A DNA stretch of 12,489 bases from a virus. Taxonomy: Duplodnaviria > Heunggongvirae > Uroviricota > Caudoviricetes. The notes beneath the pieces were generated by a model. It searched no databases. It worked only from the letters and a program-made list of their open reading frames with translations, and had not been told where the DNA came from. Made by a program: the position numbers and the translations under genes. The stretch lies in IMG/VR virus record IMGVR_UViG_2636415416_000016. One strand, 5' to 3'. This document shows, piece by piece, positions 2,017 through 6,685 of this stretch (position 1 is the first letter of the stretch; each line of letters begins with the position of its first letter).

Positions 2017-2111
2017 AACGCCCCCTTATAACTGTATAAAACAACAGTTATTATAGTTTCACAAATCGCAATATTCATCATCGTAATTGCAGAATATGAA
2101 ACAAATAGCAC

Positions 2112-2142
2112 AAAAAAATGCCACCGCTCAGTAGCTGGTGGC
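2112..2142 (-). terminator. rho-independent terminator for the minus-strand replication operon
   Basis: Minus strand reads GCCACC-A-GCT ACTG AGC-GGTGGC followed by A and TTTTTTT (2112-2118): a GC-rich 9-bp stem with one bulge, a 4-nt loop and a U7 tract. On the plus strand the A-run precedes the hairpin, so it is unidirectional. Confidence 0.5.
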
Positions 2143-2337
2143 GTCGTTCTGTGTGTCAGGTTTTGACAGGTTTTTTATGGACTCTAAAAACTATATTTAT
2201 GGTGTCGCATTACTCTTCACGGCAGGCGCTTTTCAGTTCTGCCCTTGCTTCTGGCTCCATTGGTAATTTGATTCGCGATCAGCTATGCGGATGGTTTGCT
2301 GAACAGGCATAACAACTTCTCAGAGGCTGTTTTTTGA

Positions 2338-2356
2338 ACTACGAAAATTTCGTAGT
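2338..2356. repeat. perfect palindrome ACTACGAAA-A-TTTCGTAGT (operator-like, core TACGA-N5-TCGTA)
   Basis: 9-bp arms around a single central base, read directly from the sequence. Confidence 0.55.
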
Positions 2357-2393
2357 GCTCACTTTCAAAAACGTCACGCCCTTGTACACAGGA

Positions 2394-2414
2394 TTTTACG
2401 AAAGTCTCGTAAAA
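2394..2414. repeat. inverted repeat TTTTACGA-AAGTC-TCGTAAAA (second TACGA-N5-TCGTA site)
   Basis: 8-bp arms with a 5-bp spacer. Shares the TACGA-N5-TCGTA core with the 2338-2356 site, centre to centre about 57 bp apart. Confidence 0.55.
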
Positions 2415-2462
2415 CACTCTCTGATGCCAGCCAGGTGTTGTGCGCATCAATTCAGTCACATT

Positions 2463-2600
2463 GTGTTGGTTCAAAATACCGTGTTGTTGGTTCAGTGTTG
2501 GTTCAAAATACCGTGTTGTTGGTTCAGTGTTGGTTCAATAAAAAGAATAAAATCCTTATAAAACAATACCATTTACAAATTGAACCAACTGAACCAACAC
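2463..2600. repeat. iteron array, candidate replication origin: five direct copies of GTGTTGGTTCA, AT-rich spacer, two inverted copies
   Basis: Direct copies at 2463-2473, 2481-2494, 2495-2505, 2513-2526 and 2527-2537 form a 32-bp unit repeated twice plus a partial copy. A 43-bp spacer of about 80 percent A+T (2538-2580) follows. Inverted copies TGAACCAAC and TGAACCAACAC lie at 2581-2589 and 2590-2600. The array starts 24 bp after the primase stop. Confidence 0.6.
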
Positions 2601-2623
2601 CTTTTCTACGCACATGAAGAAGC

Positions 2624-5383
2624 TCATTCTTCAGATGAGTTATAATCTCCTGGCTGGTAATTGAGTACATAAACGTTTATTTGTCGTCCCTGAATACGTG
2701 GTGATTTTCTTTGGTATCCACGACCGCTGTTTGGTGGGGTTAGCATCCCGGCTTTTTTCAACACTTCAGCAAACTGTTTTGCGTTGAAACCACATGCGAT
2801 CTCCTTTTCAAATGTGGCCGGGAATGTGTAGAAAATCATTGGGCTTTCGTCATGTTCTCCACGCTGACGGTATCCGGCTAAATCTTTGATGGGCAAATCT
2901 GCCGGGCTGTATGGAAATGGTGCAAAACGGCTAAGCCCATAGGCATTAAGAAATGCCTCCGTTTGTTCAATAATCTGCTGATGTTCTTTGTTACCTGTGC
3001 CGAACTCGCGCAACCATGCGTTATAGCTGTGCTGTATCGCATCACGGCATGTCTGAGCATCCCAGCCTGTTACAACCTCGCCTAACAGCAATGCGGCCTC
3101 CAGAATGGCAAATCGCGCGGCTACACGGTGAACCTGCTCACCATAATCGGATGGGATCAGGTTTCTCCATCTGCTTTCGCAATCACGAACGGTTTTAATA
3201 GCCTGTTGCTGGTGGTCTGCCAGCCATTTAATCCACTCACGCCCGGCTGCGCCGTGGTGATGCTGGTAAGCGTCTTTCAGTGCGTCTGCGTGCTGTTTTC
3301 CGTTCTGGTAATCGTGAAAGCGTACTGCTTTACTCAACGGAATATTCAGCAGTCGCACCAGTTGCCCGGCTTTGGTTTTTCGCCCGGAAGTAGCGATAAA
3401 TGTTTCTAAATCCATTTCTCCGGTGCTGATTGCCACTGTACGCCAGCGTTTTAGATCCCGGTTTCCACCATCTTTAGCGCCTTGCAGTTTCCCTACACCG
3501 TTAAATAACGCATAGGCAGACTGTGAAACGCTGACAGGATCAGCGCCCTGACCAACTTCATCAAGCGGCATTAGTCCGTCATTGTGGGCGGCGGCCTCAT
3601 TTGCCAGCCCCAGCGCGGTTCCGTACCACGTCAGCCGCAGTAAATCAGGGTTGCCGTATAAGCTGCTCGCCACGTTTGCCGTGGTGGTCTTACCTGCGCT
3701 CGACTGCTCATAGAAATGAATGCCGAACCCGTCAGCGCCCACCAGCCCAATCAATGGCGCTGCCAGTGCTGCGCCGATCCCGGTCATCATTGAATAGTTA
3801 CCAAAGGCCAGACGCGCCACGTTATCACGCCAGCTTTTCGCGCTCCCTGAGACGGTATATCCGGCTGCGGCTGAGCTTCTCCCGCTGAACAGCACAGGAT
3901 TTTCAGGTGTTCCGATGATTTCCCCATCAGGCATGATGTACGCTCCGCATTGCCAGACAGTGGCATGAGCAACACGCCACAATTCACGAGAGCCACTGCG
4001 TTGTAGCCAGTCTGCCAGTATTGCTCTGAGGCTGCTTTTGGTCGTGACATTTACCCCACCAGCTTTAAGTGTGCGCCATCCTTCACGTTCACCAATATCA
4101 GCCAGTGGAATGGCAGCGGTTGTCGGCGTTTCAGAACCAAACGACAGCCAGCGAAGAATGAGATACTGGTCTTTATCGTCTCTGCCAGTACCGATAACGC
4201 TTAACGGAGAACATAACCAGCTTTCGTTATTGATGATTTCTCCACTCTGGCTGTCAGCTCTCGGAGATACCCAATAAATACCATCCTCGCGGCTTTCTAT
4301 TCTTGGTTTCAGTGGGTCGGTATCCATAACCTTAAAATCGCTTCCCTCAATGGTCTGTGGCTCCTGTTTCACGCCATTACCCTGTGGTTGGTACATTGAC
4401 TTATTGAACGCTTCTGTGGCGCATTTAATGCCGTGTTTTTGGTGGTAATCATTCCAGTCTGCTTTGTGATCTGTCGGGGGTAATGCCACCCATCCAGAAA
4501 CAGATAAAGCTGCTTTTTCTGCTGCTATTCTCCCCGTGTTTTGTCTTCCTTCGCTGTGGTCGTTATCCGCAGCAATGATGATTTGTGCTGAAGGAAATTT
4601 ATCCCGCAGTACCTGGGCGACATATAACAGGTTCCCGGCATCAATCGCCGCCACTGTCAGCGCCTCTGGACGAATTAAATGGGCAGATAATGCCGTTGCC
4701 AGCCCTTCTGCGATTAAGATGCTCTGTGTTGTTTCTGGCGCGTTTATGGCGTGATATGCCCCCCGCTTTGCTGAACCTGTCAGGAGTCTTTTTTCACCAT
4801 GTGATGTAATAGTCTGTGCTGCTGTGACTGCGCCGGATTTATCCACCAGCGCCAGCAACAGAGATCCATCGGGCAACACGGGGAATGTAAAATCACCTAC
4901 CCCTTTCGCAACCAGATAATCAGATTTGCCGTTTACAGCCTTTCTGCGCATGTCATCAAACTGACGGGAAAACGTATCCCGTCTTTGTTGTTCGTCCTTC
5001 TCTGCCCTTTTCAGGCGCTCCTGTTCGCGTCGCTGGCGCTCGGTTTCCAGTTGTTCCCGTTTCTGGCTGGTGGCTTCTGGTGTTTCCGTTGTCCGGTAAT
5101 CAATACCCAGAACATCAGCGGCAAGAAGCGCCGCCTCTGTTGTGTCGCAGTTATTTACGCGTTTAATTAAATCCAGCCCATCACCAGCGCCGCACTGATT
5201 ACAGATGAAGCTACCGCGCCCGTTGTCATCGAACCGGAATCGATCTTTGCCCCCACATGCAGGGCAGGGAGCATGACGGCGCGGAGAGTCAGGGACATTT
5301 ATGTTCAGGCAGCCCAGCACATGAGGCCAGTTGTTTTCAGACGCACTGATAACCTGACGGATAAGATCAATGTTTCGCATCAC
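2624..5383 (-). CDS. replication primase-helicase: N-terminal primase zinc ribbon, TOPRIM domain, C-terminal P-loop NTPase (DUF927-like)
   Basis: 919-codon ORF. N-terminus has CPACGGKDRFRFDDNGRGSFICNQCGAGDG (primase zinc-ribbon signature); central IIIAADNDH is a TOPRIM acidic motif; C-terminal half has Walker A SSAGKTT and Walker B LMPLDEV. Start is GTG 5381-5383 or ATG 5378-5380, overlapping the upstream gene stop. Stop TGA at 2624-2626. Confidence 0.85.
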   Translation of the reverse strand: MMRNIDLIRQVISASENNWPHVLGCLNINVPDSPRRHAPCPACGGKDRFRFDDNGRGSFICNQCGAGDGLDLIKRVNNCDTTEAALLAADVLGIDYRTTETPEATSQKREQLETERQRREQERLKRAEKDEQQRRDTFSRQFDDMRRKAVNGKSDYLVAKGVGDFTFPVLPDGSLLLALVDKSGAVTAAQTITSHGEKRLLTGSAKRGAYHAINAPETTQSILIAEGLATALSAHLIRPEALTVAAIDAGNLLYVAQVLRDKFPSAQIIIAADNDHSEGRQNTGRIAAEKAALSVSGWVALPPTDHKADWNDYHQKHGIKCATEAFNKSMYQPQGNGVKQEPQTIEGSDFKVMDTDPLKPRIESREDGIYWVSPRADSQSGEIINNESWLCSPLSVIGTGRDDKDQYLILRWLSFGSETPTTAAIPLADIGEREGWRTLKAGGVNVTTKSSLRAILADWLQRSGSRELWRVAHATVWQCGAYIMPDGEIIGTPENPVLFSGRSSAAAGYTVSGSAKSWRDNVARLAFGNYSMMTGIGAALAAPLIGLVGADGFGIHFYEQSSAGKTTTANVASSLYGNPDLLRLTWYGTALGLANEAAAHNDGLMPLDEVGQGADPVSVSQSAYALFNGVGKLQGAKDGGNRDLKRWRTVAISTGEMDLETFIATSGRKTKAGQLVRLLNIPLSKAVRFHDYQNGKQHADALKDAYQHHHGAAGREWIKWLADHQQQAIKTVRDCESRWRNLIPSDYGEQVHRVAARFAILEAALLLGEVVTGWDAQTCRDAIQHSYNAWLREFGTGNKEHQQIIEQTEAFLNAYGLSRFAPFPYSPADLPIKDLAGYRQRGEHDESPMIFYTFPATFEKEIACGFNAKQFAEVLKKAGMLTPPNSGRGYQRKSPRIQGRQINVYVLNYQPGDYNSSEE

Positions 5384-5738: not shown

Positions 5739-6072
5739 GAGAACCTCCCGCTACAGTTGCGCCCATGTCATTAACCATGCTTTGCCATATCTCACGCCCG
5801 ACGTCAGTCAATCCGTCCTTAGTGACGCAACGCTCAAGAAGCTCGATCCCCACGGTTTCCCACTGCGGGTAGAACACTTTCATGGCTGCCAGTGTGTAGC
5901 TATCGATCAGGCTGCGAACGCCTTTTACTCCATTAACGATTTCCACACGTACGGCCTCGCCGTCCGCATCAACCATGAAATAGTCCCCGCCGCTGGTGGA
6001 GGTAATGTGGTTATACAGTGCCGACGCATACTTATTTGCCAGCGCATTCAGTCGGAAATTTTTAGTAATCAT
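5731..6072 (-). CDS. hypothetical protein, 113 aa
   Basis: ATG at 6070-6072 with GGAG-containing Shine-Dalgarno sequence; 10-nt gap after the upstream stop. Coding-like composition. Confidence 0.6.
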   Translation of the reverse strand: MITKNFRLNALANKYASALYNHITSTSGGDYFMVDADGEAVRVEIVNGVKGVRSLIDSYTLAAMKVFYPQWETVGIELLERCVTKDGLTDVGREIWQSMVNDMGATVAGGSHA

Positions 6073-6082
6073 GGCTCCATCC

Positions 6083-6685
6083 TCAGTGCGTCACTGGTTC
6101 CGCTGGCATGCCGTTTTCATTCAGTTCAGCTATAAAGCTGTTGTGAAGTTCAGCAAGCGTTTCACGACCAAATGGAGTCAGTGCTCCTTGTTCCACATCC
6201 ATCATGGCTCTGTAGAAAATGATGGCGCGTTCTGTGCCAGACTCGATGCCAAAACGTTCTATCATCGCTCCCTCAATGTTGTTTGCCATAGCGAGGCGCT
6301 CTGCTACTGGATACAGCGGCATGGCGACGATGCCGTTGGAATAAACAGCCACTTCGGAAGGATTGCCAGTATCATCAATGATGCTGACAGTGCCGTTTTC
6401 CTCTCTCATTTCCAGCATGAATACTGTTGCGATCAGCCATCTCCACATAATGACGTTATGCTGTGATGTGTAATCGAAATATCCCTGGTTGCCGCCATCG
6501 GCAATAGCGAGATGTATTGACATACCTTCATCTGGTTTATCGTCATAATCCCCGGCATCCAGACGATTTACGGCATCAATATATGAGACGGCCTCAACGC
6601 GTTCTGTCATGCCATCGTTGCTGCGGTACATGATGTTTACGCCGTCAGGCGTTGCTTCTGTATGGAAAGTTAAGAAATTATTCAT
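6083..6685 (-). CDS. hypothetical protein, 200 aa
   Basis: ATG at 6683-6685 is preferred over the TTG at 6790 used by the ORF track. It overlaps the upstream stop as ATGAATAA and has GAGG about 9 nt upstream. The longer N-terminal extension would overlap the well-formed upstream gene. Confidence 0.55.
   Translation of the reverse strand: MNNFLTFHTEATPDGVNIMYRSNDGMTERVEAVSYIDAVNRLDAGDYDDKPDEGMSIHLAIADGGNQGYFDYTSQHNVIMWRWLIATVFMLEMREENGTVSIIDDTGNPSEVAVYSNGIVAMPLYPVAERLAMANNIEGAMIERFGIESGTERAIIFYRAMMDVEQGALTPFGRETLAELHNSFIAELNENGMPAEPVTH

Follow-up and report, generated by a model that had tools for sequence, protein, structure and literature searches.

The replication origins of the staphylococcal pathogenicity islands (SaPIs) comprise 6-12 iterons located immediately downstream of rep, with an AT-rich centre and at least two opposed iterons on each side of it, and the iterons are recognised by a winged-helix domain in the C-terminal domain of Rep, probably acting as two hexamers (PMC9371898). 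The Rep helicase of SaPIbov1 belongs, together with Cch, to the DUF927 family (PMC7581432) and reads the iterons directly downstream of its own gene through its C-terminal domain (PMC7581432; PMC9371898). Among the phage-inducible chromosomal islands (PICIs) of Gram-negative bacteria, rep- and ori-dependent plasmid maintenance was shown for EcCICFT073, in which deletion of the segment equivalent to the one described here lowered Rep-dependent maintenance (PMC6092414). Cloning and EMSA work on autonomous replication and on specific Rep-ori binding exists for EcCICFT073 and the SaPIs (PMC6092414, PMC9371898). The island EcCIMP1 of Escherichia coli MP1, a PICI of approximately 20 kb, can excise and form a circle, and the P22-like phage Kapi1 transduces it (PMC11773190). 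The present analysis concerns a 12,489-bp stretch of DNA from a virus record (Caudoviricetes; IMG/VR IMGVR_UViG_2636415416_000016), referred to below as the window, which is an EcCIMP1-like PICI of E. coli. On the evidence of sequence comparison, the array of short repeats that follows the initiator gene of this island, pri-rep, at positions 2465-2598 is very probably its vegetative replication origin (ori).

The array is built of a 9-bp core, GTTGGTTCA, that occurs seven times in the window, every copy lying inside 2465-2598. The number expected by chance is 0.13 (mean of dinucleotide-preserving shuffles) and none of 200 shuffles gave seven copies. Five of them are located on the plus strand, starting at 2465, 2486, 2497, 2518 and 2529, and two on the minus strand, at 2581-2589 and 2590-2598. 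The five direct and two inverted copies announced in an earlier, sequence-only reading of this DNA are thus present when the core is counted; the 11-mer in which they had been described, GTGTTGGTTCA, is exact in four copies only, three direct (2463, 2495 and 2527) and one inverted (2590-2600). The other three deviate within the first two positions of the 11-mer, two direct copies having one mismatch (TTGTTGGTTCA) and one inverted copy two mismatches (CAGTTGGTTCA). The direct copies lie in 2.4 perfect repeats of a 32-bp unit (2463-2538) and are spaced 21, 11, 21 and 11 apart, and the distal set arose through duplication of this unit. The two sets are separated by a 43-bp AT-rich spacer, as had been reported, with 36 A+T out of 43 positions (84 %), which is presumed to be the site of melting and helicase loading. 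Since pri-rep is encoded on the minus strand (2624..5383), the array lies 3' of the gene, in agreement with the earlier placement after the primase stop except that the gap to the first 11-mer is 23 nt and not 24. A literature search for the iteron sequence gave unrelated papers only.

The layout is that of the SaPI and PICI origins. The number of short iterons is within the 6-12 found there, they are divided into two sets around an AT-rich region (here five and two), at least two iterons are present on each side in opposite directions, and the whole array is placed immediately 3' of the initiator gene. As in SaPIs of the SaPIbov1/SaPI1 type, the origin is 3' of rep and the initiator is itself a helicase. 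Pri-Rep consists of a Zn-ribbon and Toprim (DnaG-type) primase fused to a DUF927 helicase-initiator (Pfam matches: Zn_Ribbon_Prim, 2.8e-15; Toprim_3, 6.1e-15; DUF927, 5.4e-45), DUF927 being also the helicase type of SaPIbov1 Rep and Cch. It matched PHROG 1139 'DNA primase' at 3.6e-176, and the RefSeq label of the product is 'TOPRIM and DUF927 domain-containing protein'. The helicase is homologous to the Reps of staphylococcal islands: residues 404-814 of Pri-Rep (411 residues) match the staphylococcal 'Pathogenicity island protein' of PDB entry 8tch with an E value of 4.4e-11, and the similarity ends before the C-terminal domain. Pri-Rep fits the description of a PICI/SaPI helicase of the Rep family and, by analogy with these, would load itself. 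The window differs from the SaPIs in the Gram-negative host, in the length of the iterons (9 bp versus 5-6 bp), in the asymmetric sets (2+5) of a single module and in the DnaG-type Zn-ribbon/Toprim part fused to Rep, the primases of SaPIbov1 and SaPI5 being of the archaeo-eukaryotic primase (AEP) type (PMC7581432).

Closer in host, EcCICFT073 is a Gram-negative PICI of the same species with the same position and layout of ori: when its origin was read in CFT073, repeats, an AT-rich gap and inverted repeats were found directly after the rep stop (cf. PMC6092414 Fig. 2b). It differs from the window in its Rep, an unrelated D5_N/DUF5906/Pox_D5 helicase without Toprim or DUF927, in its CTGTCTACC-like iteron, in its att site and in its packaging module. 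EcCIRM13514, a PICI at yicC-dinD listed by Fillol-Salom et al., was considered as a carrier of the DUF927 rep type and discarded, as it has a D5-type primase. The closest described element is EcCIMP1 (Pick et al. 2025), with the same gene set, the same iteron and, in relatives, the thrW/proA location. The MP1 sequence is 96 % identical to the window over 2017-3100 and differs from it in having 3+3 iterons with 21/21 spacing instead of 5+2.

Satellite P4 and the iteron plasmids share some of these traits. P4 is an enterobacterial satellite with a P4-type integrase next to a tRNA gene, as here, and its alpha protein is likewise a fused primase-helicase with a C-terminal domain that binds short repeats. 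The helicase of P4 alpha is D5-like rather than DUF927, the P4 repeat is TGTTCACC, and the alpha-binding repeats form two separated clusters, ori and crr, both of which are needed. Since the window, which holds part of the island, has a single cluster and its helicase is of the DUF927 and not the D5_N/DUF5906 type, the P4 model does not fit. The sequence-only reading had recognised a known satellite organisation and cited P4 along with SaPI and PICI origins; the SaPI/PICI-type layout was confirmed, and SaPIbov1 and the PICIs, not P4, proved to be the closest analogues. PICI Pri-Rep is only distantly homologous to P4 alpha, and in genomic structure and gene content the E. coli PICIs are fundamentally unlike P4 (PMC6092414). 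The iteron plasmids (pSC101, R6K, RK2, P1) also have repeated initiator sites beside an AT-rich unwinding element, and the copy number and sequence of these sites define specificity and incompatibility. Plasmid iterons are 17-22 bp long and mostly in one orientation, and plasmid Reps are not helicases and recruit host DnaA and DnaB. Because the 9-bp repeats of the window are short and opposed, and the initiator, with its primase and helicase domains, is itself the helicase, the plasmid iteron model (RepA/pi/TrfA type) does not fit either.

By analogy with the SaPI Reps and the EcCICFT073 origin, we infer that the array would work in the following way. Upon induction by a helper phage the island would excise and express Pri-Rep, and the 9-bp iterons would be recognised by the winged-helix-like C-terminal domains of the protein. 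The opposed iteron sets would place two Rep hexamers head-to-head across the 43-bp spacer, the spacer would melt and the DUF927 (MCM-like) helicases would load themselves without a separate loader. The fused Toprim domain would then make primers, and the host polymerase would copy the island for packaging by the P22-like helper.

Homologues were sought with the C-terminal half of Pri-Rep as query in a set limited to a single genome for each species. The 80 loci found belong to many Enterobacterales genera, apart from one in a Tolumonas metagenome-assembled genome and one on a contig bearing the label Chryseobacterium. The 450 nt following the rep stop were analysed for each locus; an intact open reading frame (ORF) and the full 450 nt were available for 76. 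Absence of the repeats from homologous islands had been named beforehand as the observation that would speak against an origin. In 68 of the 76 loci these 450 nt contain an 8-mer in 4-12 copies, a count reached by only 15 of 967 background 450-nt windows taken from the same loci, and 63 of the 68 arrays share the layout of at least two proximal copies, an AT-rich spacer and at least two distal copies in opposite orientation. In these 63 loci the first proximal copy lies at a median of 25 nt past the stop and the proximal set usually shows 9-bp phasing. The spacers in the homologues measure 42-57 nt (median 45 nt, median A+T 0.80) and their distal copies are spaced 11 and 21 bp. For the array as a candidate replication origin, each prediction that could be put to sequences alone was borne out, among them those on the type of initiator, the layout and the conservation across genera.

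In many of the loci a second iteron module follows, at 170-285 nt from the stop. These modules, and the separate ori and crr clusters of P4, could be taken to mean that the repeats bind Rep yet serve as a cis-acting auxiliary or control region, similar to P4 crr or to plasmid sites of copy control by handcuffing or of rep autoregulation, while the true origin is located elsewhere in the island. There would be room for it, since the window spans only approximately 12.5 kb and the whole island measures about 20 kb in MP1 (PMC11773190). However, GTTGGTTCA is found nowhere else in the window, the second module of the relatives is adjacent to the first and not distant from it, and the defining traits of the initiating site in SaPIs, an AT-rich centre and opposed iteron sets, are present in the array (PMC9371898). 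The deletion result for the equivalent EcCICFT073 segment also points to an initiating site; the same paper, for P4, only names the cognate site (PMC6092414). A Rep-binding control or enhancer site with synthesis starting elsewhere is the most serious residual alternative, and an unlikely one.

The geometry of the arrays is constant in the alignment, the repeat sequence varies by lineage, and the copies within one locus change together. This variation follows the C-terminus of Rep. All 40 loci with TGAACCAAC have (R/Q)KSPR(I/V)xxRQ near the C-terminus, all six loci with TGAGACAAC have GRVRExGRQIR, and in further lineages (TGAACCGAC, TAACCCGT, TGGGACAAC, TGACCCGAC and others) each repeat is accompanied by its own C-terminal motif. 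The distance between iterons was correlated with the distance between the C-terminal 59 aa (Mantel r 0.77), and the correlation persisted when the helicase core was controlled for (partial r 0.74; 0 of 2000 permutations reached it, p <= 0.0005). Given the C-terminal domain, the partial r between helicase core and iteron was -0.30, i.e. the helicase core adds nothing beyond the C-terminal domain. The comparison of the window with E. coli C51, which has an origin of the TGAGACAAC type, illustrates this on a small scale: the last 458 residues of the two proteins are 84 % identical, their iterons differ at two adjacent positions, and the protein differences cluster in QRKSPRIQ...N versus QGRV-REG...R. 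The C-terminal domain itself appears from its sequence to resemble a DNA-binding domain, as HTH_56 (the Cch helix-turn-helix domain) was matched by 18 of 67 homologues, with a best E value of 1.6e-5. A profile of the domain run against PDB gave a chance match only (E 1.6).

A natural exchange shows which part of the protein the iterons accompany. E. coli MDR_56 (L003, NZ_CP019903.1) carries the same island, and its immediate upstream and downstream proteins have accessions identical to those in E. coli SCU-172, where the island adjoins tRNA-Thr and proA. The primase part of the MDR_56 protein is 86 % identical to that of the window over aa 1-351, nearly identical over the first ~215, and the protein then continues as an unrelated DUF5906 helicase, which constitutes an in-frame domain swap. 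When 4900-8588 of L003 is compared with 2421-4350 of the window, the DUF927 helicase, the C-terminal domain and the iterons are seen to be replaced; two small ORFs are present in the new part. The GTTGGTTCA array is absent, and TGGTA(C/T)AGGT repeats are found instead, one cluster of them immediately following the gene and another 1.1 kb away. From ~2421, just beyond the CCTGGCTGG motif, the two islands are homologous again. It follows that the iterons travel with the helicase and the C-terminal domain and not with the primase domain or the neighbouring genes. Since the primase domain is shared with a relative having another helicase and other repeats, the C-terminal domain of the helicase part is probably the specificity determinant. 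The distinct initiator specificity proposed in the sequence-only reading therefore stands as far as the repeat covaries with the Rep C-terminal domain, and has to be detached from the primase domain, which is shared unchanged.

The MDR_56 island also bears on the possibility that the array is the operator or promoter region of the downstream P22-like virion operon (53-aa ORF, DUF2824 and gp7-like gene). The array is indeed located in a 600-bp intergenic region upstream of this same-strand operon, and PICIs often regulate their packaging modules separately. MDR_56, however, has retained these genes and the 400 bp preceding them with 95 % identity, although its array was exchanged along with the helicase. 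Moreover, the same iterons follow homologous reps ahead of other genes (SSB/PerC, capsid), the repeat covaries with Rep, and the promoter reading was abandoned after a scan of 1800-2900 had found no sigma-70-like or other promoter-like site. An operator function of the array is thus very unlikely.

The same iteron was found after a homologous rep in a capsid-forming PICI (cfPICI; L005), in which Rep has no Toprim and HK97-type capsid, protease and portal genes lie downstream, and a variant iteron after the rep of a PICI of the PerC/SSB type (L002). These occurrences are relevant to another function that was considered for the array, that of a packaging signal (pac or cos-like) for a helper-phage or satellite terminase. 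EcCIMP1 is packaged by the P22-like Kapi1 through a determinant that is unknown (PMC11773190), and the array lies beside virion-related genes. A packaging site should match the helper, yet the repeat varies in step with the Rep C-terminus and is the same in cfPICIs that have their own HK97-type capsid genes. A site derived from a helper phage was rejected because the sole match among 50,697 phage records was a cfPICI-like segment in one 106-kb Klebsiella record. That the array is a packaging signal is highly improbable.

The number and spacing of iterons vary even among elements that are 96-100 % identical in rep (window 2463-2598 versus L001, L008 and L089). Distal and proximal copies number 5+2 in the window, 3+2 in SCU-172, 3+3 in MOD1-EC7003 and, with the spacing given above, 3+3 in MP1/EcCIMP1; the 5+2 version of the window was found in no complete E. 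coli genome of the collection. Slippage is active, since the copy number varies among near-identical elements, and the repeats might accordingly be regarded as functionless slippage products. Alternatively, the inverted repeats might act as RNA, being a terminator or a structured 3' end of the pri-rep transcript, as minus-strand RNA may pair both sets into a long imperfect hairpin (minimum free energy -48 kcal/mol, z -2.5). The putative loop is 43 nt long and AU-rich with no adjacent U-tract, though, and the terminator reading was dropped when a scan found no terminator within the array. A known RNA was rejected as well, since an Rfam scan of 1800-2900 gave only chance matches to plant-miRNA hairpins (E 0.6-0.95). 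Neutral slippage does not explain the cross-genus geometry and the concerted change of sequence. Both explanations, RNA structure and functionless repeats, can hardly be credited, and the vegetative origin remains the preferred reading of the array.

Several observations nevertheless weigh against an origin at 2465-2598 or weaken parts of the argument. The arrangement in the window is asymmetric, with two proximal versus five distal copies, and it has no second iteron module such as many relatives have at +170 to +285. Eight of the 76 loci have no array of at least four copies: three copies are present in L026 and L086, weak GAAACCGT repeats in L084 and none in L057, L068 and L085, and the genes of L083 and L087 are broken. 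The HTH_56 match of the window protein itself has an E value of only 0.068, below the Pfam cut-off, and when the C-terminal part was modelled with AlphaFold, once as 188 aa (30 sequences) and once as 105 aa (92 sequences), the pLDDT was below 50 over the last ~100 residues both times. The Mantel tests leave some phylogenetic non-independence. In L054, QKSPRINGRQVNVYV, nearly the motif of the window, goes together with the iteron TGAACCACG, so the rule linking motif and iteron is incomplete and the wing segment alone does not account for specificity. Finally, the paper on EcCIMP1, the only experimental description of the family, covers excision, circularisation and transduction and does not address replication, no origin or iterons being described (PMC11773190).

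The exchange seen in MDR_56 and the occurrence of the iteron in different types of islands allow a tentative generalisation, which we consider possible rather than probable: the helicase, the C-terminal domain and the iterons may together form a transferable cassette, which would be joined by recombination to a Zn-ribbon/Toprim primase that stays constant, move among EcCIMP1-like, classical and capsid-forming PICIs, and define replication-specificity (incompatibility) groups of co-resident satellites. If so, the approximately 15 natural pairs of iteron and C-terminal motif would represent a readable recognition code for DUF927 initiators, and a cognate Rep resident in the same cell could replicate orphan origins without rep in trans. 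An origin of this kind was seen in E. coli EC18 (L004, NZ_CP060914.1) at 4500-4625, where three direct and three inverted copies of GTTGGTTCA surround an AT-rich spacer, with no rep gene nearby, beside a perC gene and dinD. The surroundings look like a decayed PICI, and this orphan origin could still respond to a cognate Rep in trans.

A further element of the putative cassette is the motif CTGGCTGG, which lies at the distal limit of the exchanged helicase-ori segment (window 2427-2435). In the orientation of the gene, CTGGCTGG(C) follows the third distal iteron in 38 of the 80 loci, mostly 148-190 nt past the rep stop (L008-L087). It is also present after the unrelated iterons of the DUF5906-type replicon of L003, at 6006-6014 and 6077-6085. 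Shared at this border by two unrelated helicase types with the same primase domain, it could, if the cassette model is true, be the site of priming or the joint at which the cassette recombines. Inside the genes of the window the octamer is frequent too (5 versus 0.4 expected), so part of its enrichment may reflect codon usage, and its association with the Toprim domain is weak (33 of 63 long proteins versus 5 of 17 short ones).

Origins of this kind are already known for SaPIs and Gram-negative PICIs, the repeat sequence being lineage-specific, and with the principle established a specialist would not be surprised by the array. The new points are the particular origin that the EcCIMP1-like family has, the catalogue of pairs of iteron and C-terminal domain, and the cassette exchange. 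A probable origin has been located for a widespread satellite family of E. coli, the ori region being present in 468 of 5,426 complete E. coli genomes. The iteron variants paired with C-terminal motifs and the exchange of helicase with iterons amount to natural 'swap experiments', on which studies of DNA recognition by DUF927 initiators, and of competition or cross-activation between satellites that share iterons, could be based. For satellite-based delivery vectors, the minimal replicon would be approximately 3 kb (pri-rep and ~180 bp).

Table 1. Position of the putative origin, its parts and the initiator gene in the window
Feature	Position	Strand	Remarks
pri-rep gene	2624..5383	-	919 codons from GTG; annotated start one codon later; stop TGA 2624-2626
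Candidate iteron-recognition domain, winged-helix-like	2627..2941	-	Last 105 aa of Pri-Rep; includes GRGYQRKSPRIQGRQINVYVL, covarying with the iteron
Linker from rep stop to first iteron	2601..2623	-	CACATG-centred box at 2611-2616
Proximal iteron set	2581..2598	-	Two abutting GTTGGTTCA, 9 bp apart (9-bp phasing), read on gene strand
AT-rich spacer	2538..2580	.	Contains TTATAAGGATTTTATT (gene strand), kept in several lineages with differing iterons (alignment)
Distal iteron set	2465..2537	+	Five GTTGGTTCA, opposed to proximal set; gene strand reads TGAACCAAC
CCTGGCTGG motif (gene strand)	2427..2435	-	Distal edge of rep-ori cassette

The genes around pri-rep are all encoded on one strand. A P4-type tyrosine integrase, a DUF6387 protein, an AlpA-like regulator, AntA, Ash and several small ORFs precede it, and the array is followed by the 53-aa ORF, a DUF2824 (P22 gp14-like) protein and a P22 gp7-like ejection protein. 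The features of Gram-negative PICIs are present: int, alpA and pri-rep are co-directional, the att site is specific (in SCU-172, beside tRNA-Thr and proA) and there is no full set of phage structural or lysis genes. Helper-dependent induction and transfer are known from the 96 %-identical EcCIMP1 only and not from the window (PMC11773190). The part of the window downstream of the putative origin (748-1838 and 1-764) carries the P22-type virion genes, and relatives have gp20-like and injection proteins as well. The gp7-like gene of the window is truncated by an IS5-family-like transposase with two overlapping ORFs.

A segment resembling the cfPICI of L005 was noticed in the record of Klebsiella phage P12620-1 (L088, PQ569648.1), which is 106 kb long and was deposited as a phage. 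In the segment, at 96792-104907, a DUF927 rep and a related iteron array are followed by three ORFs with no annotation beyond hypothetical protein, which match the capsid, protease and portal genes of L005 in length and order. It may be a satellite that was co-assembled or co-packaged with the phage.

The region between pri-rep and the virion genes contains some further sequence elements. In the linker, the CACATG/CACGTG-centred box (window 2606-2621) keeps its position in most homologous loci regardless of the iteron type, as judged from 30 aligned downstream regions, and a weak inverted repeat (2608-2621/2627-2640) overlaps the linker. A terminator-like hairpin with a T-run (GCTACTGAGCGGTGGC ATTTTTTT) was found on the minus strand at 2120-2135, ~490 nt downstream of pri-rep, and is followed closely by the 53-aa ORF with AAGGGGG as ribosome-binding site. 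This hairpin probably marks where the pri-rep transcript really ends. Two related sequences, the palindrome ACTACGAAAATTTCGTAGT at 2338-2356 and TACGAAAGTCTCGTA at 2397-2411, lie in intergenic DNA that the cassette-swapped island has retained along with its downstream virion-gene module, and they may be an operator of the virion-gene operon.

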